From Styela clava (lineage: Eukaryota), in contig NC_135253.1 of assembly GCF_964204865.1 (NCBI RefSeq), positions 6,572,001 to 6,636,000 of the forward strand: a DNA stretch of 64,000 nucleotides. The letters run 5' to 3'. Made by a program: the position numbers and the translations under genes. The notes beneath the pieces were generated by a model. The model had not been told where the DNA came from. It searched no databases and worked only from the letters and a program-made list of their open reading frames with translations. Shown here one piece after another: positions 64-38,053 of the stretch (within the stretch, counting starts at the first letter, position 1; every line of letters begins with the position of its first letter).

Positions 64-3000
64 TGGGATCTCGTATGCGACCGAGCATGGATATTGCCTC
101 TTATTACAATGTTATACATGAGTGGAGTTCTTGTTGGTTCACTTATGGGAGGATCGTTATCTGACAGGTTCGTAACTGTAATGACTATTTATGTAATCCT
201 AGTTTGAATACTTTGCAATATTAACATAAGCGTAAGAAAGATATTACTATCTAAAAATTTGAAATGAACGGCGTTCCACTTACTCCCGAACAAGCATCAT
301 AAATTCCTGCGGATAATATAATTTGACTTTCTCTCGTGAGAAGGATTGTTTTTAGATTCAATGAAGTATGCTTAGATAACGGTCGTAACGTATGAATAGT
401 AATGAATAAAACGCTTTTCTTCCTGTAAATAATTGGCCGATAAAAACCTTTGAATGTTTAAAATGCAAAAGAAAAGGTACATTCACGATGGGCAAATATT
501 AGCCTTATCGTGTCGTTTTTGTGCGAATTCCTGTTTGAAAGATTAAACTAGGCTTAAGATCACTAATATTTTAACCCTGTGACCCCAGCGTGAATATCCT
601 GTGAAAATATTTTTTAAATTTGCTCAAATGGTACCAAGATGGTGAATTTTGTAGTAAATTCTGACGGTCGTTCCATTATTTTAAAATGCCTAGATCAGTG
701 GTTCTCAACCTGTGGTACGCGTACCTCTAGTGGTACACGGGAGCTTTTCAAGCGGTGCGCGAGCAGATTTGAATTATTGCAACAATTAACCTTTCAGTTG
801 GCTAAAATATGCCGGCAACGCTTTATCTTCCTTACTGTATGTATTCGCTGAACAGCGTTTATGTATGTTTCCCTGAGCATCAGTTTTCTTGTTTATTTCC
901 GTAACTATAACCAATCAGCAATAAGTCAATAATGACGCAAAACGTAACAATTACAATTTCTGCACTCAGCCGCTTAGACACTTCTGTCGCTCAAACAGAT
1001 ATTCAAGCATGGTTGCAAACATTGCCTCGTTTTTGTAGTTTTGAGTGATATTTGTCAGTTTTCAGTTGTGTTTCAAGAAAATAATAGTGAATTTATTAAA
1101 TTAATTGTCATTATGTCCTCCGCGGAGCTTCACTTTAGTTGCAGTGATCGAAAGTGAATCTCGCAAATGCTGCGATGGACAGGGTTAAACTTAGCTATAT
1201 CAGTACCTGCAAACGGCACATGATTGATTAATTTTAATAAAAATTATGGTTTTAAACACGTGTTCCAGTTTATATGCGCCAAAATACCAAAACACTCTCA
1301 GAATAAGCATAAAGTTTGCAATAGTAAAGTATAGTAATTTTTCCGGGGTCAATAGTCGGGAAACGTCCATGGCACTGGTGTGCTGTCGGTGCTCTATTGC
1401 CCACTTTAAGCGATATGGGCATGTTTTTGTTTGTTTTGCGTGTTACGCCACAAACGATTTAGTGCCACATTATAAAATACACACATAGCATAATAGCATG
1501 TTTCTTGTGTCTCTTTCCCCACGCCAAAAAGGAGCTTTGTCGGTGGTACGCGGCCATAGTAAAAAAACAGTAAAGTGGTACGCGGTCGGTAAAAGGTTGA
1601 GAACCACTGGCCTAGAGGATTGCCCCAACCTGTTTAATCTTATATTTCAGGTTTGGACGAAAGCCTACATTTCTCTTCGGTACGTTGTTTATGTTCGTCT
1701 TTCTCGGATTGTGTGGCGTTTCAACTTCCCCACAAATGTTTGCAGGGTTTTTATTCTGTGCAGGCGCAACAGGATTCATCAATTATCTTACGGCATTCAC
1801 TATATGTAAGTGGTTAAGTAAGCTAGGTTGAAATGTATTTATTTTCTATACGTGATGCGTGTCTTGCACAATAAAGACAGGAAAAACATTTAGTAGCTTC
1901 TCATCCATGATAGTACAGAGCCATCTTGCAAGTGTATAAAATGCCGCATAATTAATTTATATAGTATGTATCTGAAGTGAATATCGAATTATATCAAATA
2001 CTGTAGTAATGTTTATGCCCACACTAGCTTGCGCGAATTTGGAAATACTAATTTTGCCTGTTTCAGATATATATATATTTATATGTGTCGTTTTTTCCAG
2101 CTGCCGAAATCATAAGCACAAAAGATCGAGTAGTCACTGGTACGCTAACTGTTGGTGGTTTTGCGATTGGTTACATGATCCTACCTGTCTTTGCATATTA
2201 CATCGGGAATTGGAGAGTGCTCTGTTATGTACTGGCATCTCTTGGTGTTGTATTTATTCCGTATATTTGGTGAGATGATGTTTATACTATTCGTTAGGCC
2301 CGCGTTCGCATTTCTGTATCAAGCAGTACTTCTCCAAATTATCATCGACAAAAATATAAATATGTGTTCCCTTCCCGATTCAGAGGGGTGGGATTTATTT
2401 TGGAAACTTCATGATATACAAAGTTTGTCTGACTGAGTAAGGAAATGACTGACAGTTTTTGCAACACAATAGAAATGAACAGTTTATTGGTGAAAGTAAC
2501 ACCAGGTCGCTTTTCCAGTACAACAACAGACAGATCTGGTTTACTTGCCAAATGTCTCAATTTAACCCGATTTGAACAAAATTCATCTCTGACAGATAAA
2601 TTTTATTCACTTTCATTTTGTCTCACTAAATAGCTCACCTGAGATATTGTATTGATCATATTATTTTACCCTGTCCTGCATTTGATTTACTGTTGCTATA
2701 CTTACGCAATGAGTTGAGGAGTATTCAAAACATATTTGAACGACCAAAATCGTTTCTCGGTAGTATTACCAGTATAAAAGTAGTGAATTTTTCTAATCTT
2801 TCCAATCTAATAAGTTACCAATATAAATCATGTTTCAGGTTAGCAAGCGAGTCTCCCCGTTGGCTGTTTACCAGGGGACGAAGAGAGGAATTCATTGCCC
2901 TTTTCATGAAAATTGCTGAAACAAATGGACTCGGCAAAGACAAGGCCAAAAGTCTGATACAGAATTTCTTTTCTGCAGAGGTGAATTAGACCAACTGTAT

Positions 3001-6000
3001 CTAAAAACAGATAGATGTGTTAGTGCTCAAACGACTTATATATGAAGGTGGCGGATACGAGCTTCTGCATAAGGAGAACTACGGTTGATTTGATGATGCG
3101 TTGGTGGCGGAGGGGGGAAGTTGTAATGCGCATCAAACAAGCGTGGTTCGGTGGCTCAACTAAACATAGTTCAAAGGGTGTTTCGTTATTTCAGGCGTCT
3201 GTCACGACAAGCCGTTGTAGCCTTGCTATTAAAGAAATACTTAATAATCCAATTGGACGGACGGACGGACACATACGAGAAAAAATTCTTTAAAAAATAT
3301 TTGGTTGCTTTTCATATTGTTTTGTCCACCGGAGTATGATTCTGAGCGTTGTTGGTAATAGAAAGTGTTTACTTATCTCCCTATTTGTAGTGTAATTATT
3401 GCTGTATTATTGCATTATCGATAGGCTTATCTCCATACTCATGTTCACGTTTTGCAGGATTCGATGCAAGAATGTGGTCTGCTCAGCGAAAACGAGATCA
3501 AAAAAAAAGATGAACCAGATCGCGTAGTAATTCGATCGAAACAAGAATCTTTTACATACATCGATCTGTTTCGCACCGGTGTTGTACGATCAAGAACTCT
3601 AACAATGTGGTTTACCTGGTGTGTATTTAATTTTTAAATCAGTAGTAGTGTTTCAGTTAATATGAAGTTGAATTTTTGTTCTTTCGCGTTTTGTATATTG
3701 GAGGTGATTTTCGTCATTGATACCTAACTCCGAGCCCAATCAGCACACAAATATAATCGCTATTACTTTTTGTCGACATTATGGGGCATAAAAAGAAATT
3801 TCATTCACTATTGAAATGAATACTGAACAAACAGAAAAACTAACAACGAAACTGTGGAAAGCCTGCTGTAAATTTTCCAGTATTTTACGGTGACTCTGTA
3901 GGTCCTCATGACATTGTCTTTTATGTAATTGAGCAAAATGCCAAGCATATGTCTGGTCCATATTAGATGTGTTCAAAAAAGCTTACAAATTGGATCAAAC
4001 TGAATTGGAAATACAATACTTGACAAAACCCCTTTTCTCTGTATCGTTTCTACTGCGTAGTTGTTTTAGTCTGGTAAATATTATGTTGAGTAGAATGTTT
4101 AGTTGCAGTCCATCGATGAATATAGATGCAAGAAAGCTTGATAATTTTACAATAATGAATGAAAATACAAAAGGTATGCAAAGGTGAGACTAGTCGTGTG
4201 TGATTTGGACACAATAAACCACTCGTCTCCATTCTCTCTACCTTCAAAAGAGCAATAATTATGCATTTAGATCACTAAAATTTGACGAAACAAAAATTCT
4301 AATTTACTCATTCATTCAAATCAAAAGTCGCAACATACCACACAATGAATATCCCAAACATTATCAATAGTTATTCAATCCTTGCGTTGGATCTCAAGTC
4401 CCATGATTTTTATTTTTGTATGAATTAGTAACTCTGTATACTGTATTTTGGAGGCGTTTTTGTAGTACGGGCTTTTATTAAAAGTTATTGCTGCTTCATA
4501 ATTTACTGCATGACTTAGATAACTGCATATAGTGCTTCAACCAAACCCGTTTTTAGGTTCGTGTGTTCAGTTGTGTATTACGGTGTGGCGTTCAACACTT
4601 CAAACATGGGAGGGAACCCCTATATCAACTGCTTCGTGGCCGCCGCTGTGGAGATACCGGCGTACGCCATGGTCATCGGTCTCCTGAAATGGCGCGGTCG
4701 GAAACCAATCCTCATCTCTACTCTACTGGTGGCAGGCCTGTCATGTTCAGCAGTTCCCTACCTGAAACAGAGTACATACCTTCCTCTGAGTTTTATTGTT
4801 TTAGTTACATTATTTATTATCGGAGCGATATTCCCATCCACCGGACAAGCAAAGATAGCTTTTTAGTCATCTATTTTGAGCACACCAATAACGAATTTTT
4901 CTGTGATTTGACGTAGTTTAGTTATAGCATTCGCTTTTGCTTCAAACAGGTAAGTTCCTGTTTGCCCCAGTCAACGTTCAAGCGTTGCACACTAAAACAC
5001 TCTTATTTAAACGCCAGTGTTCCATTTAATGGCCAATTTTTTATTAACTATGATTACCTATTATTTTGAAGTGCATTAAACTATGGTATACTATATCTTT
5101 ACCTGTTTATTTATTTCTCAGTTAACCAAGATATGGCAATCACGTTTGCGATGATTGGAAAATTATCAGTGTCTGGAGCATTCGGCATTATCTTCATTGT
5201 CTGTTCAGAACTCTTTCCCACGCTCATGCGCAGTATGGGAGTTGGTTCGTCGTCCATGGCGGCGAGAGTTGGAGGAATGGTTGCGCCTTATATACTTTAT
5301 CTAGGTAAACTTTTTATTTTCTTGTCTACTAAAATACATAGTTGTTGATCTTTTGCTATTCGGTTATAAATATGATAAACTTTCTTCACTTTCTGTACTA
5401 TCGTTTTCAATCACCACGAGCCAATCGTTTGTTATTGAAACATAAGAAAAATATACAGGGTTGTGCTGTGTTTAACTTCGCAGTGCCCCGTTATTTTACT
5501 GTGGAACATTTCGTTATAGTATAAAGCAGACATGGGCAAAGTACGACCCGCGGGCCAATTCCGCCCCCCTGGGTAATTCAATCTGGCTCGCTGGATGCTG
5601 GCACAACCAAACTGAAACCAAATTATGATGTTTTAGTTAAAAATAGCTCAAGGAATTTGTTGAGATTGCGGTTAAATTTAGCTTTGGCAGGTTTATTGTT
5701 TTCATCTGTTGCTTTTGTAACAATGTAAACCTTGTTCATAAAACATGGCTCTTTACGTCATACTTACATGGCTTGCCAGTTTAAGTGGGAATTTTTTTTG
5801 GCCCGTGATCCCAAAACCGTACCCACCCCTGATATAAATTCAATTTAACGAATACTCCCAATGTGCATTGGTATTCAGCAAAACTATTTATCATCTACGT
5901 CATAGGTTCTCAAAGTGCTCCGTACGGAGCCCCAGGGCTCCGCGAGAGAAACCCAGGGGCTCCGCGAGCTATTCGATTACTTTTCAAAATACTGACTAAT

Positions 6001-12273: not shown

Positions 12274-13405
12274 CTACGGCCAGCAGTTTTTCTCGCACAG
12301 TTTGCAGGATACGTGTAGCCTCATCATACTTTTTGCTCTTTTTCGTCCTGTTTCATACCAAGGAGCCGATCGTTTGTCTAGAAATATATATACAATGTAA
12401 ATACTAAAAAGAAGGGATCTTATACAGAACCTACAAAAAATTATGAATGGAACAAAGTTTTATGAATGGAAAATGCGTTATCAAATAATTTTCAGCTCAA
12501 AGCCATAATAGTTTGAGCATTTAATTGAGTTATCAAGCTTTTATATTTTTATATGTCCAACACGCGAAACGCCAACCGGGGTTATTAAAAAGATTTTTTT
12601 GTGCTTGTTACATTTTTTTATCAATCATCTGTTCAGTTTTTTTGTAATGTTGAATGATAGCTATAAAAATATTAATACAATCTTAAAATACCTCTTCCAA
12701 CAGTGGCATCATCTGTAATGCTTCTTTTCGACAAAAACGAAACATGGCATCTGTCATGGATTGTACTGCACGCGTTTTCAACCACAGGTCCACATGCCTT
12801 CATAATGGTTTCGTATATTTTTCTGTGAATTTAATTATTAAACAGTTAAACAAAATAAAAGATGTAGTTTTTAAAATATTTATAGAGCAAATCTACAACA
12901 TGCCAAATGTCACCAACTACTGACCAAACTGCCGGTATCTATATTATTCCCTGTTATAATATGATTGATTCTAAAAAATCCCGTTCTCCATATTATTTTA
13001 TTCGAAAATAGTACGTTAAAAGATAAAACTTATTATTATTGCATTTATGCAAGTAAGAAACGCAGACTCGGAATGAAAATTATTGTAATTATTTTTCTGC
13101 AATGTTGGGACTCTCAATTATAATAATACCGTTATTGCTGACCTGCGTCTCTGTCTCTCTGGTCTATGAGTAGGTTGCAGGGTTGTTACTTCTGGTGCTT
13201 CCGTTTCTGCTGATAGGCGGATCACATGTGCAATTTTTCGTTTTGACATGGCGAATTTCTTTTGTAAGTATTTCATTTTATCAAACATATTCATCTGATT
13301 GAAATGTCTCACATAAGCAGGAGTTGCATCCATAGCTACCACAACAAACACAATTGTGATGGACAATATTAATAACACCCTTTGGCTTGTAATAATAGTC
13401 GACAT
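12274..13405 (-). CDS. Secreted prepropeptide (candidate peptide-hormone/neuropeptide precursor), 3 exons, 165 aa
   Basis: Exons 13405-13143 (AG|GTCAGC, phase 2), 12822-12692 (CACAG| ... G|GTATTT, phase 1) and 12377-12274 (TTCTAG| ... TAG) join into one frame: MSTIITSQRVLLILSITIVFVVVAMDA-TPAYVRHF...PERQRRR-KIYETIMKACGPVVENACSTIHDRCHVSFLS-KR-SITDDATVGRD-KR-SAPWYETG-RKR-AKSMMRLHVSCKLCEKNCWP*. It has a hydrophobic signal peptide, several basic sites and 6 Cys. Confidence 0.75.
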
Positions 13406-13536
13406 CTTAGGTAACAAAAGACTTTTAGTTATTCAAGAGATAATTTTACCGCCAATATCGTCTCTAGAAATTGCTTCGTTCAATTGCCTTGTTGAATTTC
13501 TAATTAGCTTTCGATTGTAGCCGTAATTCTAAGGAA

Positions 13537-13547
13537 TTATATATATA
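13537..13547 (-). promoter_or_regulatory. Candidate TATA box of the prepropeptide gene
   Basis: TATATATATAA on the minus strand, ~130 nt upstream of the ATG at 13405. Confidence 0.35.
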
Positions 13548-15149
13548 CACACGCTGCGTTACTTCTTCCGTCGAAACGTATTGCAAAATAATTGCCTCCA
13601 GCAAATTGCGACTCGTATTTAAAGAATTTCCATCAGGCGTAAAAAAGGGAATTTCTAAGAATATGCACTACCATCAAAATTGGTTTCATTTTTGCGTTAT
13701 CTATGAAACATGTATGGCGGTTGATGTAAGGATTTATATCTGATGGAATTTGTATGATAACCGAAAACAAATACATATATTTGCCTAATTTTCGGTACAG
13801 GTACTTGAACAGATTAATATGACGTCACACTTTCACGTCATGAAATCGCAAGTGATAGCTTTCTCAATTTGCAACAGACTTATATCTGCAAATTGCACAA
13901 AACAAGCAATTACCAAACCGAGATTTGGCAGGTGCACAAGCACAACAAATTTAAAGATATTGACGCAATTCATTAAACGAAGCGAATTATTGAGCAACAT
14001 ACATTTCGTAATTTTGTATCGCAGAAGGTATTTTTTCCAGGTTAATGAATCTTTAAGATTCAAGAAAAAAAAATATTTCTAGTCTTCTTATTACAAACCA
14101 TATTTTTCCGTAAGACTGGCATTATTTTCAATTCTTGGACCGAATTTGGATATGCATATATAATAATGTTTTTTTCCATTTTCGTCAGTGCCTATTTCTA
14201 TTGTACATTGCCTATGATTAAAATAAAAACTATGTGATTTTCCTGTTTTCTTTGTGCTGTATTCAGGATCTGTTTGCTATTCTAAATATGTCACAAAATC
14301 AACTGTGGATTGCTCTGAAAATTTGAGTTTTTTTGTAAATGTCAAAACAAGAGCTATCCCTCTTGTTTTAATACAAAGACAGGCAAACAAACGACATACA
14401 CATAAAATTGAACAAAACAAGTGGATCTTTTCAAACAGATTTTATGATCGTTATTGTCTTCGACTCTACGTGACTGAGATCAGGGTCAATTTGTGTAAAT
14501 AACTCTTTTGCACGGAGGCGTGGAAATTTATTTAAGGTTAGGTTATTGAAGATTTGTTCGCGCGAAATTGCATATAAGATTAAAATATATTTTCAAATTT
14601 TGAAGTGGCTCTAGCATCTTTTCCTCATTTATACCGAAATTATTTTCATTGTAACCTATTTATTAATCAATATGTTTTCGTATTTTTGTTGACTTAATAA
14701 TTAACTCTCTCCATGAACTCTCTGCCTATAGGTTTCACTCCCTTACGCAACTTGATGTAGAATAGGCGAACAAAATTAGTTATCTCCATATTGGTACACA
14801 CACTTCTGGAGCGCCTTTTGCATTGTTACAACCTATTTAGTTGAGTATTCTAACATTATAATTCAAAATATTGATGCTAAAATATTTGCTACTATTCAGA
14901 AAAAATACAATATCAGTGACGTCATTTTCTACAATGAATTGAAGGAGTTGCTCGGCATTTTAGCCTGTACTGGTCCTACACTGAACATATTGTTTCAAAA
15001 ACTGTTGTTTGTTTCATTATTAGTTTCGAACGTGACTGGATACTCGAGATAGTCGTTTGAACATGATATTTTATGTATAGGCTGTATTTTTAAGCTGAAG
15101 ATTTATGCGATCGATTTTACTGTCCGACAAAAAAGGGTTTTCTCATGGT

Positions 15150-17897: not shown

Positions 17898-19541
17898 TCA
17901 TAACACCTTGGCCATATATGGTCCTTCCGTTTCATAACCAAGTTTTCTGTAATAGTTCCGTGTACCAACACCAGAGATGACTAGAATCTTAGTTGAACCA
18001 TGTTCCTCCTTTGAAATTCTTTCTGCCTCTTCCATCAACAAGGTCCCGAATCCTTGGTGCTGAAACTTACCAGGATCTCTGCAACTCACTGGAACAACAC
18101 TCCCATAAACATGCAATTCTCGAACAATAGAAACACCTTTTCCCTTGACTTCAGGTCTGGAAGAATCGTCAGAACATTTTCTCAACCTCAATAAACCAAT
18201 CAAAATATCTTGCTCGGGGTCTTCATAGCTTAAAAATACTTCCCAGCCACCATTAGCATAATAGTCTCTTCTAATGAGCTCAACTTCGTATGGTTGTACT
18301 TTTTGGTGGATTTCTTGTATTCCTACTTCCCTAGTGCGAACATCTCTGCATTTGGTGCCAAAATCTTCCATCCGAGCTAATGCGAGCTCTCTCAAGTTTC
18401 CATGTTCCACTCCCGATGTTACTAGAGGCATGGGAATATCACGCTGCACACGATAAACCCTGGTCCATGGGGGTACAAGAGCAAGAATGCGAGCAACCAA
18501 GTCAATTAATGTTGAAGGAGGATAACTTTTATATCTACCAGTTTTCCATAATTCATATAAGCCCGTACCACGGATGACGAGAGTGGGGTACAGTTTTATG
18601 CCATCGGGTCTGAAATTTGGATTTTCAAAAAATTCAATGAATTGTTCGATGTCTCTTTCCAAATTAACATTAGGTAAATCTGGCATCATATGTGCCACTA
18701 CTTTAAATCCAGCATCTTTAGATAGTTGGAAACTTTCAGTGACCGCTTTCACGGTATGACCACGATTTGTGTCTCTTGCAATATCTTCATACACACTTTG
18801 AACACCGATCTCGAGTCTGGTACAACCATACAAAAGCATGTCACTCAGATGCTTTTTTAAACAATAATCCGGCCGTGTTTCTATTGTAATACCAATGCAC
18901 TTAGTTATACTTTTTTCTGAATACTTAACGGCCTCTGCAACATCATTGCTAGTATGGCCGGACAAAGCATCATGTAAATTTCTTATAAAATAGTCTCTAT
19001 ACGATTCAGGCAAGGACATAAATGTGCCTCCCATAACAATGAATTCAACTTTATCGACAGAATGTCCTAGTTGTTTCAGCTGCTCAACGCGATGTCTTGT
19101 TTGCAAATAAGGGTCATATCTTGCCCTTATGGCTCGCATTGATGTAGGTTCATACCCTGTGTAAGATTGAGTGGAATATTCAAAATCAGAGTCTGGTCCA
19201 CCTGGGCAATACACACAAATATTTCCTGTCATATTTATATGGGGACATCGATGAGGTTTACACATGACTGCAACTATTGCAACACCACTTGCAGTCCTCA
19301 CTGGTTTGGCACGTAACTTGGGAAGAAGTACTTTTTTATATTTATGTGGAACAGCAGCTATAATGTCTGTTAGTCTTGGCTGAGATGATAATCCATATTT
19401 GCTTGATATTTTACATTTGAGCTTGTTTAAATTTACATCCTTTTTTTCTTTGTGAGCTTCGATCAATTGATTGATGATATCCGCAATGGTAACAGCCATC
19501 AATTCATTTTGAGTGGCTGAAGAAAATTCATTCTTCCCCAT
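17898..19541 (-). CDS. ELP3: Elongator complex protein 3 (radical-SAM + GNAT tRNA-modifying enzyme), intronless CDS, 547 aa
   Basis: [22 protein letters not shown] (CX9CX2C), [29 protein letters not shown]. The ATG at 19541 (MGKNEF) follows a splice acceptor TTTGCAG at 19569. Confidence 0.98.
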
Positions 19542-20199
19542 TTTAGAAATTGTTAAAGTATAATTTTTCTGCAAATAAGGATAGATAATTGACACTATTA
19601 AAAAAAACTAGTACATATATAAAATTTTTGAATCATCAGCAGAAATATTACAATTCTGTTTCAACAGGCTTCCTCCCGCAGAAGAGTAGGCTATATTTAA
19701 AAAAAAACATGTTGGCTATATAATGTTCAAAACATGAAATGAACATAACTGTATGAAGTGCTCATGACCATGGAATAAAGAGTCAATGTCAAAACTAGAT
19801 CCGTATGACAATTTATTTAAGTTATTTGTAAAAAATTTATAATTTTAAAGTAATATCACATGACTGGAATTAAAGGTTTACCTCATTCATTATATTTATA
19901 TACTTGCAAAATAGTGATTTGGCTCTTATCATAATTATTATATGGAACCCCAAAAATTTAAAATTCATAATAATGAACAATTAGGTATAACCCAAATAAT
20001 ATTATTTTATAAGATAAGTTGTTAGTATAAGTCACAAAATCATGCATAATAAATACAATACAACAATCTTCACAAGCCACAGCATCAGATACGAAAAATG
20101 AATTATTCAACTGAAATATACAAATACATCTTCAATATAACGAGGACTGTAATTATGAAAACTGCAATAAAAAAAAAAGTTCAGTCTGATTGAGCCAAA

Positions 20200-21138
20200 T
20201 TAACAATTTACACTTTCTTCCATGCTTAGATTACTATTAACTATTTCACGTTTCTCCCTCAGCTTTTCCAAGAAATAATTGATACGTTGAACTTGCAGAG
20301 ATGCATCTTTTGAGATCTGAATGCCATTCAGATCCTGGCAGGTAGAAGATGCATCTGCCTGTACACTGGCCGTCTTAATATGTGAATAGGCATTTTGGTA
20401 AAGCAGTATTGCACCATAGAAATCCCATATTGAAAATTCGGGCCACAAAGCTTTGAGAAATGATAAATATGAAAAAGTGCTTTGCCAAAGTAAGAAATCA
20501 CTCAAACGAACTTCTCCAGAAGTTCTTATCAATAAATCCACGGCTGGAATTTGTAATGTTTGCGAGATCAAGTTCTGTGAAACATCACTGGGTAATAGAA
20601 AACCCATTTGCACACCCCAAGCAATTTCTCTTGTGGCCTCGGTCATTTCCAATCTTGATATATATGCTACACATATATTAAGCCGACACTTATTGTGTGA
20701 CTTTGTCATATTTTGTATTTTAGCTGCCATTTGTCTAAGATCGAGAGAAAGCATGTTAAGTTCTCCAACTATTCGTACTCTCACACCATGAGCTTCCAGT
20801 TGATCTTTCTCCTCCAGAATTTTAGCAAACTTTTGGCGAGCTAGCTCCATCAAGCTATCAACTTCTTCTTTTGATCTCTTAAAATTTTCAGCACTGAAAG
20901 CATATACTGTGACCTCCTCAACACCAAGATCTTGACACCATTTCAGAGTTTCCGCCAGCTTGTCAAAACCTTTTGAATGTCCCTCAATCCTTTGGACATG
21001 CTTTTTCGCTGCAAAACGTCTATTGCCATCCATGATAAACGCAACATGTTTTGGAATAGGTCCATATCGAATAACTTTTAAGCAAAGCTTCTGAACCCAT
21101 GACAGTTCCAATCTGTCATCCTCAAGTATGAGCGACAT
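20200..21138 (-). CDS. DHDDS: Dehydrodolichyl diphosphate synthase (cis-prenyltransferase), intronless CDS, 312 aa
   Basis: PKHVAFIMDGNRR, TVYAFSAENFKRSKEEV, LLIRTSGEVRLSDFLLWQ, LWPEFS; first ATG at 21138. Confidence 0.96.
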   Translation of the reverse strand: MSLILEDDRLELSWVQKLCLKVIRYGPIPKHVAFIMDGNRRFAAKKHVQRIEGHSKGFDKLAETLKWCQDLGVEEVTVYAFSAENFKRSKEEVDSLMELARQKFAKILEEKDQLEAHGVRVRIVGELNMLSLDLRQMAAKIQNMTKSHNKCRLNICVAYISRLEMTEATREIAWGVQMGFLLPSDVSQNLISQTLQIPAVDLLIRTSGEVRLSDFLLWQSTFSYLSFLKALWPEFSIWDFYGAILLYQNAYSHIKTASVQADASSTCQDLNGIQISKDASLQVQRINYFLEKLREKREIVNSNLSMEESVNC

Positions 21139-21199
21139 ATCGACAACCAGGCAACTGCTTGAAAGAGAACTGCATTCACCTAGCGAAAAATGACAACGA

Positions 21200-21620
21200 A
21201 ACAATCCAAAATTTGGTGGATTAACTCATACGGTGTAATCAGGTAACGACCGATATAAAAATGGCTTAGCTAGAAAAATTTCGATAAGTATTCTTATAAC
21301 TGCCTTTTTTCAGATAAAAGATATAACTAATTATAAAATAGCTTTTGTTAACTCTTCCCCGTCCTATCATTGAAAAACGTCACCATATACATGTGGAAAT
21401 CTTGACGACATCGCATACACTGAACACTAAAGGCGCTGACGCGCCACAGACCAATGCGTCGACACGTCATTTCGGTGTTCGTATCTCCCTTCGCAGGGTC
21501 TTGAACTTTTTCTATATTTTGCGCTGCCTTGACTGAAGTGTGATGGATTTTGTTACATTCATATGAAGTCGAAAAAACGCAATGTTGGCAATTCGAAAAA
21601 AGACTTTACCGAAAGGATAC
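21200..21620. promoter_or_regulatory. Probable bidirectional promoter region between DHDDS (-) and COPZ1 (+)
   Basis: Head-to-head genes with a locally CpG-rich patch (e.g. GCTGACGCGCC, GCGTCGACACGTCA) between CpG-poor CDSs. Confidence 0.45.
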
Positions 21621-22494
21621 TCTAGGAAAAAATAATATAATATATAAATGAAAATTTGGCGTTTAGCTAATATGGACCTTTTAAATATTTGGACAACTGC
21701 AGGTTGATGCTGTAATTGATAAGCGAAGTTTTTAAAGATCAACCAAGAAGAAAATTACCCTAAAATACTGTTATTTGGAGTTCTAAAACTGCTCAAGGTT
21801 TAGTTAATATTATTTTTTGGCTTGGCAATTATAGTTGTTTTCATGCATAATGTATTGAATAAAAATATATTTGTAGTTGACATATTTATTGAAGTTGATT
21901 AATCCTTTTGCAAATATTTAACGATAAATGTGCTGTAATCTTATTAATAGCATGAAATAATAGGGTGGAAAATTGTCAGGGGGTTTCCATAATAGCTCTA
22001 AAATCTGTTATTCGAATTATCTCATCGACTTGGGTTATTATCGAACTACTGTTATACTATATATAACGGAACATAAGTAGTGAATATTTATGCACGGATT
22101 TTAAGTCACGATGTGTTGTCATATTGCTTGCAGCTCTTGTAATCTGTGAAGATCAAACAAATTGATTGGCTGATTATTTTACAATAGATATGAGGTTGGT
22201 TGTTCTTCAAAGCATCCCTTTGCTACCTATCCTAATTTCCAATGGCTGAAGGGTACGATAAGGCTTAATAAAATGACTTGAAATATATGTTTTGCCTATG
22301 TATGCCACATGATTTATTTTTAAATAGGGTGTTTTAAGATTGTATTTTGCATGCAATTAAATTTTGATTTCAAATATTCTGAAGCTAAATTCATTGGACA
22401 TTTTTAATGCTACTTTTTGAGGATATATATCTGATCGTAAATTGTTTTCAGTTACAAAAGTATTATTTGATTACAAACAGATTATATAATAATT

Positions 22495-23025
22495 ATGGAG
22501 GGCAATCTTTTGCCATCTCTAGACACTATAAAAGCTGTAATCATCTTGGATAATGATGGAGAAAGATTAATTGCCAAATATTATGATGACACCTATCCCT
22601 CATCAAGAGAACAGAAGTTGTTTGAGAAGAACTTGTTCAAGAAGACTGCAAAATCTGACTCAGAAATAGCATTATTGGAAGGGCTGACAGTTGTGTATAA
22701 AAACAATGTTGATCTATTTTTCTATGTTGTTGGAAGTTCACAAGAAAATGAGCTGATGCTTATGTCAGTTCTCAACTGCATATTTGACACAATGAATATT
22801 ATTTTGCGCAAAAATGTGGAAAAACGAGTTCTACTTCGTCATCTCGATAGTGGGTTCCTGGTTGTTGATGAAGTCATCGATGGGGGTGTCATAATGGCAG
22901 TGGATCCAACTTCTGTCGCAGATCGAATAATCATGAGAGGAGAGGATATACCACTCACAGAACAAACTGTAGCACAGGTTTTACAATCAGCCAAAGACCA
23001 AATCAAATGGTCCTTGTTGAAATGA
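22495..23025 (+). CDS. COPZ1: Coatomer subunit zeta, intronless CDS, 176 aa
   Basis: [71 protein letters not shown]; splice acceptor TTTTCAG at 22451. Confidence 0.97.
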
Positions 23026-32327: not shown

Positions 32328-33047
32328 TTAAAATTTGACAATTTTCGGCTTTTTTATAATCGGTTGTGCATTTTTTAATTCGTCGTCACTTTCATATAGA
32401 GTTATTTCATCATCTACACTGACATGTTCGAGTTTATTATTATGATCACAACCACTGACAGATCCAGTTAACCGATAAGCATTAACTTCCCCTTTAATTC
32501 GCCTTTCGGGGCAATCTCTTTTATAGTGGTCAACTGAACCACAAAGTTTACAGCAACCACCATTTGGATAAAGTCCTCTAGGATTGTCTGGGCAAGTTTT
32601 CGAAAGATGACCTTCTTCCCCACAAATAAAACATTTTGCGAATGCAAATTCATTTCCATTTTGTATCTTTGCAGTACATGTATGCGACTTATGTTCAGTT
32701 GAACCACACTTGAAGCAAATCCCTGTCCCCTGCTCATTATCTTGCTGCAATTTAGGACAGTCTGCCATTCCATGTCCGGGCATTCGACAGTGAAAACAAA
32801 CCATACCATCTATTTTACGCCGATGTCTCTTGACTCTCCTATTTTCTGATCTTTTATTCTTCTTGATCGCAACTTTTTGGACAGCATTCCTTTGTACATT
32901 TGAAATTGATTTCTGAGAACCGACTCTGAATTTAGTACTTTGATGGCCAGCAAAGTTAGAATTTGAAGCATGTTTACTCCCAATATCTTCCCACTTTGAG
33001 CCTTGTTCAACCTTCTGGCCACTCTTAGATCTAGCCCACCTCGTCAT
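32328..33047 (-). CDS. ZCCHC9: Zinc finger CCHC domain-containing protein 9, intronless CDS
   Basis: Starts MTRWARS; four CCHC knuckles (CFHCRMPGHGMADC, CFKCGSTEHKSHTC, CFICGEEGHLSKTCPDNPRGLY, CKLCGSVDHYKRDC); ends KKPKIVKF. Splice acceptor TTTTTTTAG at 33092. Confidence 0.95.
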   Translation of the reverse strand: MTRWARSKSGQKVEQGSKWEDIGSKHASNSNFAGHQSTKFRVGSQKSISNVQRNAVQKVAIKKNKRSENRRVKRHRRKIDGMVCFHCRMPGHGMADCPKLQQDNEQGTGICFKCGSTEHKSHTCTAKIQNGNEFAFAKCFICGEEGHLSKTCPDNPRGLYPNGGCCKLCGSVDHYKRDCPERRIKGEVNAYRLTGSVSGCDHNNKLEHVSVDDEITLYESDDELKNAQPIIKKPKIVKF

Positions 33048-33599
33048 ACTTGAATAAAACTTTTTAACTCTTCCAAATGGATTATATGTAGCTAAAAAAA
33101 TATTTACCATGGTCAACAATTTAAGGCTTCCGAATTCCCACCAATTTCAGAATTTTAATGCAAAATAAATTATGGTATTGCTTTGTCAGAATACGATTTC
33201 CATATTTCAGTATTTAGCTACGGAGGTGAGGAGTTTAATGATCATTTCATACATAATTGCTTTTGGCACACCATGCAAAGCGTCAGGAATACAACTGTCA
33301 CAGCACCAACGATCATCCTGCCTGGGTTGGAGGATACTGGACTCTTTGTCGTGGTGAGGTGGTTCACCAGAGTTACTCCAGCCCACACTCACCCTGTGGT
33401 CAATGGGTTAACCAACTATTTTACTCACTTTATAAACGTTATTTCAGAAAACTCCATAATACACACAATTTATAAATTGAGAATGCCAGGGCGCAAGAGC
33501 AAAACATTTAAACCAACTCACCAGCACACACACACACACACAAACCTTGTTAAACAAGACTTGGGTCAGAAATAAACGTATTGAAACGATGAAATTTTG

Positions 33600-34636: not shown

Positions 34637-34804
34637 CCGGCACCACTTAATTTGGCAGCCTCCTTTTAATTATGTACGGTACTTACCTTTATTTCGAACC
34701 CTTTCTAGGCTTTGGCACATCTTAAATATCGTATATAATTCGTTTACATTTTCTTAAGTCTATAAGTACTGTAATTAAATTAGACACACAATTAAAACTT
34801 TGCA

Positions 34805-35404
34805 ATGGCATCGAGAACTATTGAGGTTTCTTGTAAAGCTCTTACAAAGATCCAATTACATGCTGCAAAATATCCACATTGTGGAGTAAATGGAGTCCTG
34901 CTTGCATGCAAACATTCATTTGCAGAAAGCAAAATATTAAATTTTGTGGACGCAGTGCCATTGTTTCATCAAGCATTGCAATTGACACCAATGCTTGAAA
35001 TTGCTCTGATGAATATTGATTCTTATTGCTCATCTCATGGACTTTACATAGCTGGATACTACCAAGCACCAAAGTATTTGAAAAAAAATAATGATTCGCC
35101 TGGAATCTTTACATGTCGAATTGCAGATAAAGTAAAGGAGAATTTCGGTGAATCTGTTCTTGTTATGATTGACAATCTGGAAATTCCAAATAACAAGTCA
35201 TTGAAATTTTACGAGCGAGCATCTGATGCTAAATGGAAGCCACGTCAATCTTCTGTTTCTTTCGAGGATGGAAGTGAAGATGCCTTGCAGGACTTTCTAG
35301 ACCGGAATGTTCATAAAGATTTGGTAGATTTTGACAATCATCTTGATGACATTTCTTTGCATTGGTTAAACAATGATATCAACCAATTAATTGTGATGAA
35401 ATGA
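34805..35404 (+). CDS. EMC8: ER membrane protein complex subunit 8/9 (UPF0172), intronless CDS, 199 aa
   Basis: LHAAKYPHCGVNGVLL, DAVPLFH, LTPMLEIAL, IAGYYQA, LVDFDNHLDDISLHWLN. EMC8 versus EMC9 cannot be resolved. Confidence 0.93.
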   Translation: MASRTIEVSCKALTKIQLHAAKYPHCGVNGVLLACKHSFAESKILNFVDAVPLFHQALQLTPMLEIALMNIDSYCSSHGLYIAGYYQAPKYLKKNNDSPGIFTCRIADKVKENFGESVLVMIDNLEIPNNKSLKFYERASDAKWKPRQSSVSFEDGSEDALQDFLDRNVHKDLVDFDNHLDDISLHWLNNDINQLIVMK

Positions 35405-35981
35405 CAATGTCAGAATGCGGAATTAATAAGAATCTGATAGCTGATGATTTGCATTAAAACTAGAATCACATACAAATGATAATGCTGAGCAACATTTTTT
35501 GTTTTGAATTTTCCCATTAAAGGGAGTCTATATGATTTCACATTTAAATTTCATTCATTAGTTCTATAGCAGGTGGTATAATCTTGTTAAATTTCTCATT
35601 TTTCTCAAAGTCTTGGAACATTGATATTCAAAACTAGTTCAGTATTTTGTTATATCATTTTATCATAATATGCATTGCAAAAATCACATTTTGCATAAAG
35701 TGGTATCCTTGTCTGCTGTTACAGTAATTTCTCATTGAAATGTTAACTAAATGCTTTTCATGGTACTATCTGTCATGTTATGTTTTTATTGAATAATAAT
35801 TGAATATTTATTGTGTTGTGGTGTCAGTTTGATAGAAATAGAATACTTTTTTTGATGTTATTATTTTTGCTGCTTGAATTATCTATCATATGTCCCACGT
35901 GCATTATACAAAAGTCAAAATGTGAATATTAATATTGTTAAATGCAGATGCAAAGATTTATTTACCAATAATAGCGTTATC

Positions 35982-36488
35982 ATGGTCCGGTTGAAACATC
36001 GTTATTTTCTAATTAGACTTGTGTTTGATGACCAAAAGTTTGGACATAATATTGAACCGTATCAAATATATGGAAGGATTAAAAATGCTGTGGAGACAAT
36101 ACATGGTGATCATGGACTAGCATGTGTGGATGTTTCACTTAGTGTAAAGTACATTAATGTGTACACTAATATTGTGCTGATCAAGACTAGAAGACAGTTT
36201 CATAGACTGGTTTGGTCTTCATTGCCATTTATCACATATGTAACCGAAAATCTTGGAAAGCGACCTAAAAAAATACCCTGTTTTCTGCACACTCTTCATG
36301 TTGGTGGATCAATCAGAAGTTGTCAAAAATTTTTAATAAAGTACCATAGAAAGAAACTGGACTCAATTTTGGATCAATGTTCAACTCCCGGTGAAAAAAG
36401 GAGAGTTAAAAAATCAATTGAGAGTGCTAGTCTGGAAACAGAAGATCCTGGCAAAAACTCTGAAGAAGAAAGCAGTGGCAGTGATTAG
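35982..36488 (+). CDS. POP5: RNase P/MRP protein subunit POP5, intronless CDS, 168 aa
   Basis: MVRLKHRYFL, HGDHGLAC, VKYINVYTNIVL, LVWSSLPFIT, PCFLHTLHVGGSIRSCQKFLI; ATG at 35982. Confidence 0.95.
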   Translation: MVRLKHRYFLIRLVFDDQKFGHNIEPYQIYGRIKNAVETIHGDHGLACVDVSLSVKYINVYTNIVLIKTRRQFHRLVWSSLPFITYVTENLGKRPKKIPCFLHTLHVGGSIRSCQKFLIKYHRKKLDSILDQCSTPGEKRRVKKSIESASLETEDPGKNSEEESSGSD

Positions 36489-36745
36489 GACATGTCGGAG
36501 AGCAGTGCTTTCTGTTAAGGTACTAATTATACTGCGAGTCCAGTTGCATGTAGTTGGTTTGTTGAAAAATCGACAATTATTTTTTATGTTGAGATTTGTA
36601 ATTGAAACATTTTAAAGAAACCCCACGATTTGTAACGGTACTATCTATTCAATTTTTGCATTTTAAATGTGAATGCCATATTCAATGGTGATTTTCTTTA
36701 TTTTATATTTAGATTTAACTGGGTTGAGTTACAGTTGTGGACGTC

Positions 36746-38053
36746 ATGAGGCTTACTCCTTATATGCAGAGGCATAAAGTGTCAAAGTACATGATTGGAG
36801 GTGTTTTGGATAAAGATGCCTCTATTGTCTCAACATGCAAAAGCCATCGCTTGATGCTGCATGCTCAACTTATCAGTTCTTCTGGTACTGGCTCATATAA
36901 TATCCTTCCTATGGGCCTGAGAGCACTTGATAAACTGTATAAGATAATTGACAATGAAATGTTGAATATAGGATGTTTGAAAATGAGTTTGTCATCTCTG
37001 TGCAGTGCAGCACTTTGGAAAAAATCCAAGAGATGGGAAGCTTTTGGAGATGAACTCGTGAAACTTAAAATGTCCAATACTGAATATTGTTTAAACCCAA
37101 CACACGAGGAGGTTGTGACAAATATGGTAGCATCCACTGGATTGATTCCAGCAAAAAATTTACCTATGAAACTTTATCAAATAACATCGAAATTTAGGGA
37201 TGAGCCTCGGCCTCGTTTCGGATTGTTGCGATGTAGAGAATTTCTGATGAAGGATCTGTATACATTTGATAAAGATACAGAATCAGCAATGGAAACCTAT
37301 GAACTAGTCACACAAGCATATGAAAGAATACTAAAAACATTGAAATTGAAATATATAAGAGCTGCCTCATCTTGTGGCAACATGGGTGGAAAATTAAGTC
37401 ATGAATATCTAATTCCTGCTGATATTGGAGAGGATAAAATATATGTATCTGAAGATGGGGATGCCTGGAATGCTGAATACGATGAATCTTTGGCTTTGAA
37501 AAGTTCTCAAACAACTGAAATTCAAGCCATTGAAATAGGCCACACATTTCTCTTAGGCCAATTGTATTCTCAGATCTTTGGGGCAAATTTAATATCACCT
37601 GATTCAACGCGATTGCCATTACAAATGGGATGTTATGGGCTTGGCGTAACAAGGATTCTAGCTGGATGTGTTGAACATTTCTCTAATGATGATAGCATTC
37701 GGTGGCCATATGCAATATCCCCTTTCAAAGTTTGCATTATCCCTCCAAAACAAGGAAGCAAAGAACAAAAACACTTTCAGAATATGGATATTGACCCTTA
37801 TAAAGAAATGGAGGAAAATTCCCTTTTAGAGGGTGATGTCATTATTGATGACAGAGATAATTACACAATCGGAAAGAGATTACATGATGCCAAGTTTATT
37901 GGGTATCCAGTAGTTCTCATAATTGGCAAGCATATCTTAGATGAACATTCCAAAGTTGAAGTCTTATTACAAAACAAAAATGAAAGTATATCCCTTCCAC
38001 TATCAGAAGTGGTGCCGGTAATAATCAAAGAATTTGAAGAAGATAGTTATTAA
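36746..38053 (+). CDS. PARS2: Prolyl-tRNA synthetase, mitochondrial, intronless CDS
   Basis: KSHRLML, YCLNPTHEEVVT, LYQITSKFRDEPRPRFGLLRCREFLMKDLYTFD, MGGKLSHEY, IEIGHTFLLG, QMGCYGLGVTRI, IDDR...IGKRL. Bacterial-type ProRS lacking the large editing insertion. First ATG at 36746, after a splice acceptor at 36712. Confidence 0.94.
   Translation: MRLTPYMQRHKVSKYMIGGVLDKDASIVSTCKSHRLMLHAQLISSSGTGSYNILPMGLRALDKLYKIIDNEMLNIGCLKMSLSSLCSAALWKKSKRWEAFGDELVKLKMSNTEYCLNPTHEEVVTNMVASTGLIPAKNLPMKLYQITSKFRDEPRPRFGLLRCREFLMKDLYTFDKDTESAMETYELVTQAYERILKTLKLKYIRAASSCGNMGGKLSHEYLIPADIGEDKIYVSEDGDAWNAEYDESLALKSSQTTEIQAIEIGHTFLLGQLYSQIFGANLISPDSTRLPLQMGCYGLGVTRILAGCVEHFSNDDSIRWPYAISPFKVCIIPPKQGSKEQKHFQNMDIDPYKEMEENSLLEGDVIIDDRDNYTIGKRLHDAKFIGYPVVLIIGKHILDEHSKVEVLLQNKNESISLPLSEVVPVIIKEFEEDSY

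Follow-up and report, generated by a model that had tools for sequence, protein, structure and literature searches.

The 64,000 nucleotides of Styela clava DNA analyzed here (contig NC_135253.1, positions 6,572,001 to 6,636,000; hereafter the window) contain a three-exon gene that, on the evidence of its sequence, is a member of an unnamed family spanning all three ascidian orders. As the original prediction had proposed, the gene appears to encode an undescribed secreted precursor in which a chain, a connecting peptide and a second chain follow one another and the Cys pattern is not that of insulin; the cysteines recur in 12/12 family cores and a dibasic site in 10/10 full-length sequences, and the linker between the chains is variable. 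We lean toward the interpretation that these proteins are prohormone-like ligands of ascidians, cut into two disulfide-linked chains with a hormone-like or paracrine role. A broader proposal, which we advance tentatively, is that they form a hormone family of ancient origin, found throughout the ascidians, with at least seven genes in Styela and a new cystine framework in which each of two chains has three Cys.

The coding sequence lies on the minus strand at 13405-13143, 12822-12692 and 12377-12274 (263, 131 and 104 nt), giving 165 aa and a stop codon. Exon 1 (13143-13576) comprises a 5′ UTR reaching at least to 13576 and the coding part 13405-13143, which specifies the predicted signal peptide, the propeptide and most of a furin-type site, RQRRR. 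Exon 2 (12692-12822) encodes chain 1, a first KR and the beginning of an acidic spacer, while the coding part of exon 3 (12274-12377) supplies the end of the spacer, a second KR, SAPWYETG, RKR, chain 2 and the stop. Both introns are GT-AG; intron 1 (12823-13142, 320 nt) is in phase 2 and intron 2 (12378-12691, 314 nt), within the spacer, is in phase 1. An upstream ATG is absent from 13620-13406, and the 3′ UTR extends at least to 12143.

Junctions were examined in four of 13 sequencing runs (X1, X4, X6 and X10). The RNA status of X1, X4 and X6, which come from three studies, is a guess: nine of the 13 runs were guessed to be RNA and none is recorded as RNA. Of the three likely-RNA runs, X1 and X4 join the junction across intron 1 (12822/13143) and all three join that across intron 2 (12377/12692); the control run X10, of unknown kind, covers the introns and joins neither junction. 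A single 800-nt X1 contig, running from 13576 to 12143, takes in all three exons and covers exon 1 (13143-13576) without a break. Since precise GT-AG skips occur in three studies, splicing is the plain reading, and the three-exon model is correct. The product is identical to XP_077967855.1 (LOC144422019), listed by NCBI for Styela clava as “uncharacterized”, and the gene is therefore already annotated, though under that label. Translation, junctions and NCBI model thus agree with the exon structure first read from the DNA, including the two junctions that the original prediction had singled out for confirmation and its remark that the ORF track lacks exons 2 and 3: the 80-aa ORF list has exon 1 only. 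Among the differences listed between contigs and window, the allelic variants in the coding sequence are V102I (12782), a silent change at Y46 (13268) and D42N (13282), which spare all Cys and basic sites; two of these three classed variants are non-synonymous (V102I and D42N), too few to judge.

The edge of a very high-copy repeat, found in hundreds to thousands of contigs per run, lies at about 14743-14800, ~1.3 kb upstream of the ATG. About 7 kb past the 3′ end, on the opposite strand (~1976-5348, plus), are the exons of what we take, from their motifs, to be an SLC22/organic-cation-transporter-like gene. The region 17898-38053 is dense in long single-exon ORFs that are presumably housekeeping-like, their motifs suggesting to us an ELP3-like protein (17898-19607), a cis-prenyltransferase-like protein (20200-21225), a coatomer-zeta-like protein (22471-23025), a zinc-knuckle protein (32328-33146), an EMC8/9-like protein (34796-35404), a Pop5-like protein (35856-36488) and a prolyl-tRNA-synthetase-like protein (36728-38053).

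All of the precursor elements first described for this gene, from the hydrophobic N-terminal stretch and RQRRR through the two three-Cys segments to KR, KR, SAPWYETG and RKR, are present in the product. The predicted signal peptide (13325-13405, about aa 1-27) has its hydropathy peak at aa 13-26, where the 11-residue value reaches 3.2, and a hydrophobic N-terminal segment is also found in the aligned full-length family members. RQRRR (aa 84-88) spans 13143-13156, with 12822 completing the last codon; most members are basic upstream of chain 1, although the canonical RxxR present here is not universal. Predicted chain 1 (12729-12821, aa 89-119) carries Cys98, Cys106 and Cys113 as C-x7-C-x6-C in an amphipathic helix pattern and is followed by the first KR (12723-12728, aa 120-121). 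After the second KR (aa 133-134) come SAPWYETG (12346-12369, aa 135-142), RKR (aa 143-145) and predicted chain 2 (12277-12336, aa 146-165), in which Cys156, Cys159 and Cys163 lie within R-h-x-h-[STHN]-C-x2-C-x3-C-W, the best-conserved part of the protein.

Genome searches with single exons or proteins recovered six further copies, bringing the number in S. clava to seven; since the genome search scores top candidates only, seven is a lower bound. P2 (12.171 Mb), P3 (12.160 Mb), P4 (13.827 Mb) and P5 (2.856 Mb) lie on contig C17, and P6 (~4571776-4573260, minus strand, locus L034) and P7 (4563062-4563654, plus strand, L039) form a converging pair ~8 kb apart on C13, with longer chain-1 exons. 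P2-P4 are the NCBI uncharacterized genes LOC120332736, LOC120332693 and LOC120332729, whose models agree with our exon calls; P5-P7 were not among the database proteins returned by homolog searches. The window copy and P2-P5 each have a signal-peptide exon; a phase-2 intron lies directly ahead of segment 1, and a phase-1 intron interrupts the spacer. For P6 and P7 the two Cys exons were located, with an intron in the spacer between them, and first exons were not found. By inspection of the sequences, the position of intron 2 is kept in 7/7 Styela copies. Loci L003 and L021, in which the family motif is absent, were dropped, as were L035 and L037, which proved to be false family loci.

Relatives in other ascidians were sought with an HMM of alignment A7, searched against 1.84 billion representative proteins at E≤1e-3. 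The 11 matches consist of four query members, four uncharacterized proteins of Clavelina lepadiformis (best E 3e-16), one protein of Ciona savignyi (P0011, UniRef100_H2ZPD3), one unnamed ENA record (P0010) and one false match. P0010 holds an exon-2-like part only and stands outside all counts; the false match, P0014, is an unrelated repeat protein of 464 aa with repeated CxxC and was rejected as a member. In UniRef, H2ZPD3 carries the name “60S ribosomal protein L34”, yet it has a signal-like N terminus and the full six-Cys frame of the family; this name seems to be an annotation error brought about by its basic stretch. Styela, Clavelina and Ciona represent Stolidobranchia, Aplousobranchia and Phlebobranchia, three ascidian orders. 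No named non-tunicate match was found among the 1.84 billion representatives; as the threshold needs ~36 bits, which could miss a short diverged core, “ascidian-specific” holds only at this sensitivity.

Other searches were less productive. Single-sequence homolog searches brought back only the protein itself (1/4 candidates; 1/19), a fragment profile brought three more paralogs (4/461), and a metagenome scan with P0001 gave 214 pattern matches, of which 0 were confirmed. A tree from 40 core columns has long branches and is mostly unresolved, with one of nine inner branches well supported, and we therefore claim no orthology. Because six paralogs and five proteins of other ascidians keep the Cys pattern, the gene is not a chance assembly of exons. 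The six gene and protein identifiers tried are not named in any paper of the open literature searched; topic searches over titles and abstract starts gave no description of such a family, and a relevant passage is absent from the accessible part of PMC13746493. A Ciona robusta ortholog may figure in a published gene list outside the searched literature. The cystine framework and the family appear to be undescribed, whereas the convertase-processed, disulfide-linked two-chain peptide is already known as a kind.

What the family conserves was measured in 12 cores (seven Styela, four Clavelina, one Ciona) and 10 full-length sequences; members are 113-185 aa long. All six Cys and a final Trp are invariant in 12/12 cores, as C-x7-C-x6-C and then a C-terminal C-x2-C-x3-C-W, and the protein ends 0-1 residue past this Trp in the full-length sequences. 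Hydrophobic residues occupy C1+4, C2+3, C4-4 and C4-2 in 12/12 cores, and C4-5 is basic in 10/12. A dibasic site lies 4-6 residues past Cys3 in all 10 full sequences (nine KR; one RK, in P5), KR also follows segment 1 in P6 and P7, and the residue next after the dibasic site is Ser or Asp. The conservation of Cys and cleavage sites that the original prediction had asked of related species is thus found for the six Cys and for the dibasic site after segment 1. The distance from C3 to C4 is 41-58 residues (41-50 in 9/10). A later KR follows 7-20 aa on in 9/10, P0009 lacking it, and in these nine the spacer that follows the first KR has a charge of 0 to -9, neutral or acidic; over the 22 residues ahead of C4, 10/10 sequences carry a net positive charge (+2 to +12). 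Chain 1 is preceded by a propeptide that is almost lacking in P0009 and P0012 and has up to about 60 residues elsewhere. With Cys left out, pairwise identity averages 0.30 in chain 2 and 0.16 in chain 1, against 0.12 in the spacer and 0.10 at the position of SAPWYETG.

How might such a precursor be processed? The signal peptide would direct it into the ER, where it would fold as a single chain; the three Cys of segment 1 would pair with those of segment 2, or around them, and the linker of 41-58 aa would serve as connecting peptide. Furin/PC1/PC2-type enzymes would then remove the variable propeptide and cut at L-x-K-R and at the basic run before chain 2, carboxypeptidase would trim the chain ends, and a two-chain peptide of about 30 plus 15-20 aa, the longer chain helical, would be released. 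A receptor would probably bind at its conserved R-h-x-h-S/T-C-x2-C-x3-C-W surface, and leftover basic residues may tether the product to heparan sulfate. With three Cys, a chain cannot pair all of them internally, and therefore at least one disulfide would join the chains if all six are oxidised; from the Cys counts, a two-chain product is likely after cleavage. We infer the disulfide linkage, the processing and the hormone role from the precursor sequences and from what is established for prohormones.

The pattern of conservation bears on what the product does. A poorly conserved C-peptide is typical of relaxin-family and other peptide-hormone precursors, according to the accessible text of PMC551602, while the precursors of centrocins, antimicrobial peptides (AMPs) of sea urchins, conserve their pro and interchain regions, according to that of PMC4805251. 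Since the ascidian family keeps its chains around a drifting linker, as relaxins do and opposite to centrocins, a receptor ligand is favoured over a defence peptide or a matrix factor. Several observations count against a two-chain ligand. The second cleavage site is less uniform than the first, P5 has RK at site 1, and chain 1 is only slightly more conserved than the spacer. The polybasic run before chain 2 could also be a retention or membrane-binding motif instead of a cut site.

The amidated peptide fares less well. It had been predicted that SAPWYET-amide is co-released with the two chains, a Gly-dibasic site serving as the amidation signal. The peptide occurs in 1/12 members only and its flanking cassette is not conserved: a clean KR-x(3-12)-G-dibasic cassette is present in two of nine database proteins tested, the second holding an unrelated basic nonapeptide (in P3), and P5 has no Gly-dibasic site anywhere. 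In the family there is thus no conserved peptide between a dibasic site and a Gly-dibasic site of the kind that marks amidated neuropeptide precursors. W-F-D occurs in P6 and W-Y-D in P7, two copies close to one another, at residues 6-8 of exon 3, not far from the W-Y-E of the window copy, although this W-[YF]-[DE] lacks cleavage or amidation flanks. An aromatic-acidic spacer motif may matter in part of the family. SAPWYET-amide may be a by-product in Styela, and that it is a functional, conserved product seems quite unlikely to us; the amidated peptide picked out originally is not the conserved signal.

Sequence and domain searches placed the family in no known group. Judged by its sequence pattern, chain 1 may form an amphipathic helix and the residues ahead of Cys4 an alternating, strand-like stretch, and AlphaFold2, run on 6- and 12-row alignments, put helices at both regions; both runs reached a pTM of 0.30 and left the linker unresolved along with much of the core, and we therefore take no structural claim from these models. 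Foldseek with the low-pTM models gave no match, and VIA-align matched generic long helices to the signal-peptide helix only, which says nothing about the fold. The ESM Atlas gave no usable feature match, and its structural matches were to bacterial or viral entries (TM ≤0.53, from a model with pTM 0.34). Pfam gave nothing for P0001 and weak unrelated matches only for other members, and PDB sequence searches gave three weak N-terminal matches, the chain-1 and chain-2 profiles matching nothing. Motifs of ShKT, trissin, calcitonin, CHH, eclosion hormone and natriuretic peptides are absent from 4/4 Styela proteins. Endothelin precursors resemble the family in having two Cys-rich segments, and the C-H of the endothelin motif recurs at the last Cys of segment 1 in 7/12. 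However, the endothelin C-x-C-x7-C-x3-C is absent from 4/4 Styela proteins, and 0/13 sub-cutoff genome matches of the Endothelin HMM (PF00322) lie at a family locus. A clear match to a described family had been named as one finding that would overturn the proposal; the insulin, endothelin, turgencin and clusterin motifs all failed to fit, and Pfam and PDB offered no convincing match.

Among the alternatives to a two-chain ligand, one is a family of two- or single-chain cationic host-defence peptides with centrocin-like processing and a turgencin-like C-terminal helix, which we regard as unlikely. Cationic character, paralog expansion and a C-terminal half like that of turgencin A fit a defence role. 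The chains of the tested proteins are neutral to cationic and there are seven paralogs, but chain 1 of the window copy has a net charge of 0. To our knowledge, fast-evolving AMPs rarely keep one frame unchanged through three orders, which also counts against this explanation. Centrocin precursors, like those of the family, run signal, pro, heavy chain, interchain, light chain and yield disulfide-linked heterodimers (accessible text of PMC4805251). Yet the accessible account gives the centrocin heavy and light chains a single disulfide where the family has three Cys per chain, and pro and interchain regions, not chains, are what centrocins conserve; the A7 HMM search returned no centrocin match. 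Turgencins A and B also come from an ascidian and have six non-adjacent Cys and a C-x2-C-x3-C tail, turgencin A sharing the 5-mer CKLCE with the window copy (accessible text of PMC7024374). They are described there as single amidated chains of 35-36 aa in which an N-terminal half, C-x3-C-x4-C, is joined by a 7-8-aa loop, whereas the family has a predicted cleavable linker of 41-58 aa and ends in Trp. Turgencin Cys are connected 1-6, 2-5 and 3-4, and the peptides are antibacterial. The C-x3-C-x4-C half is absent from the four Styela proteins tested, and only the C-terminal half of C-x3-C-x4-C-x7/8-C-x2-C-x3-C, sought in one chain, is present. A further group of Cys-containing peptides, the St-CRPs, are 18-19-aa peptides with defensin-like connectivity in the part of PMC13208793 available to us. 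Sequence alone cannot separate a signalling from a defence role.

No more probable, in our judgment, is a secreted factor that is cut once or never; held to heparan sulfate or to the tunic matrix by its polybasic stretch, it would serve as a matrix protein or a short-range growth factor. The polybasic run before chain 2 in 10/10 sequences (+2 to +12), the C3-C4 distance of 41-50 in nine of them and the variable second KR fit such a factor. However, the dibasic site 4-6 aa past Cys3, followed by Ser or Asp, in these 10 and in P6 and P7, and the lack of conservation in the linker sequence are more readily reconciled with the cleaved two-chain ligand.

The closest likeness in processing logic is to insulin/relaxin precursors, including Ciona INS-L1-3, and it is very doubtful that the family is an offshoot of that superfamily with rewired cysteines. 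Family members and insulin-type precursors alike would have a signal, a chain, a dibasic site, a variable connecting peptide, a basic site and a second chain (the layout is read from the sequence and the cleavage is predicted), with six invariant Cys, the last near the C terminus. In insulins, the B chain has C-x11-C and the A chain CC-x3-C-x8-C. Both motifs are absent from 4/4 Styela proteins, the 12 cores showing C-x7-C-x6-C and C-x2-C-x3-C-W, that is, 3+3 Cys instead of 2+4; unlike insulin, the family also has an extra N-terminal propeptide and a polybasic run, and has no HMM match. A B-C-A-like layout, a Gly after the first Cys in 7/12, hydrophobic residues at +4 and +11 in 12/12 and a Cys at +8 could point to a common origin. 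We take +4, +8 and +11 to match insulin B-helix core positions, and the phase-1 intron within the spacer is presumably placed as in insulin genes; but any amphipathic helix would show such spacing. Pfam Insulin (PF00049) was not listed for the 12 alignment rows at E≤1, with filters dropping most matches above ~0.1, and in the Styela genome the matches of the Insulin HMM are three loci outside the family. These are L044 (C6:3057192-3057263), with a canonical B-chain motif, L046 (C2:16884850-16884933), with a canonical A-chain motif, and L045, with neither. The three insulin-like genes of Ciona are the known set in the accessible text of PMC12702675. The family would thus work like an insulin-type precursor but, by its Cys pattern, is not a member.

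Origin as a miniature of the clusterin disulfide domain is highly improbable: although clusterin (7zet), at E 1.3, is the sole PDB entry that the family profile matches at E≤10, a clusterin-like gene with C-x-P-V-L in its first cluster lies ~350 kb from P2/P3, and clusterin too is furin-cut into two chains joined by antiparallel inter-chain disulfides (accessible part of PMC12527946), with a first Cys cluster superficially like chain 1, the similarity is not significant (hhalign probability 0.5, E 0.11; 6.5 bits for the clusterin-like segment on the chain-1 HMM against 12.4-36.4 for left-out true members; 153 of 2000 Cys-fixed shuffles scoring as high), the chain-1-only profile has no PDB match, clusterin is about 450 aa long with two five-Cys clusters (the second one different), five disulfides, and coiled-coil and alpha/beta roll domains where the family has 3+3 Cys in 113-185 aa, PF01093 is not listed for members, and the second cluster (C-x9-C-x9-C-x7-C) and intron positions of the clusterin-like gene differ.

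That clusterin-like S. clava gene (C17:~11809128-11815020, plus strand; loci L028, L029 and L030) has a signal exon, a mid-gene polybasic site and the second cluster just given. Its first Cys exon matches Pfam Clusterin at E 6e-4 (19.4 bits, below the 23.6 cut-off), and the only PDB match of that exon is human clusterin (E 0.048); the second-cluster exon alone has no clusterin match. Each cluster is one Cys short, as though a single disulfide had been lost together with both of its Cys. Clusterin is termed a vertebrate protein in the accessible part of PMC12527946, and among titles in the literature with both “clusterin” and “Ciona” none is on such a tunicate gene.

If the tentative proposal of an ancient hormone family holds, the family would be a second, independent chordate invention of the insulin-style arrangement of chain, C-peptide and chain, and its members would be ligands of one or more orphan tunicate receptors. 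Being common to three ascidian orders, the family is a defined target to localise, to knock out in Ciona and to synthesise for receptor deorphanisation, and a solved structure would distinguish a second origin of the insulin-type precursor design from a rewiring of it.
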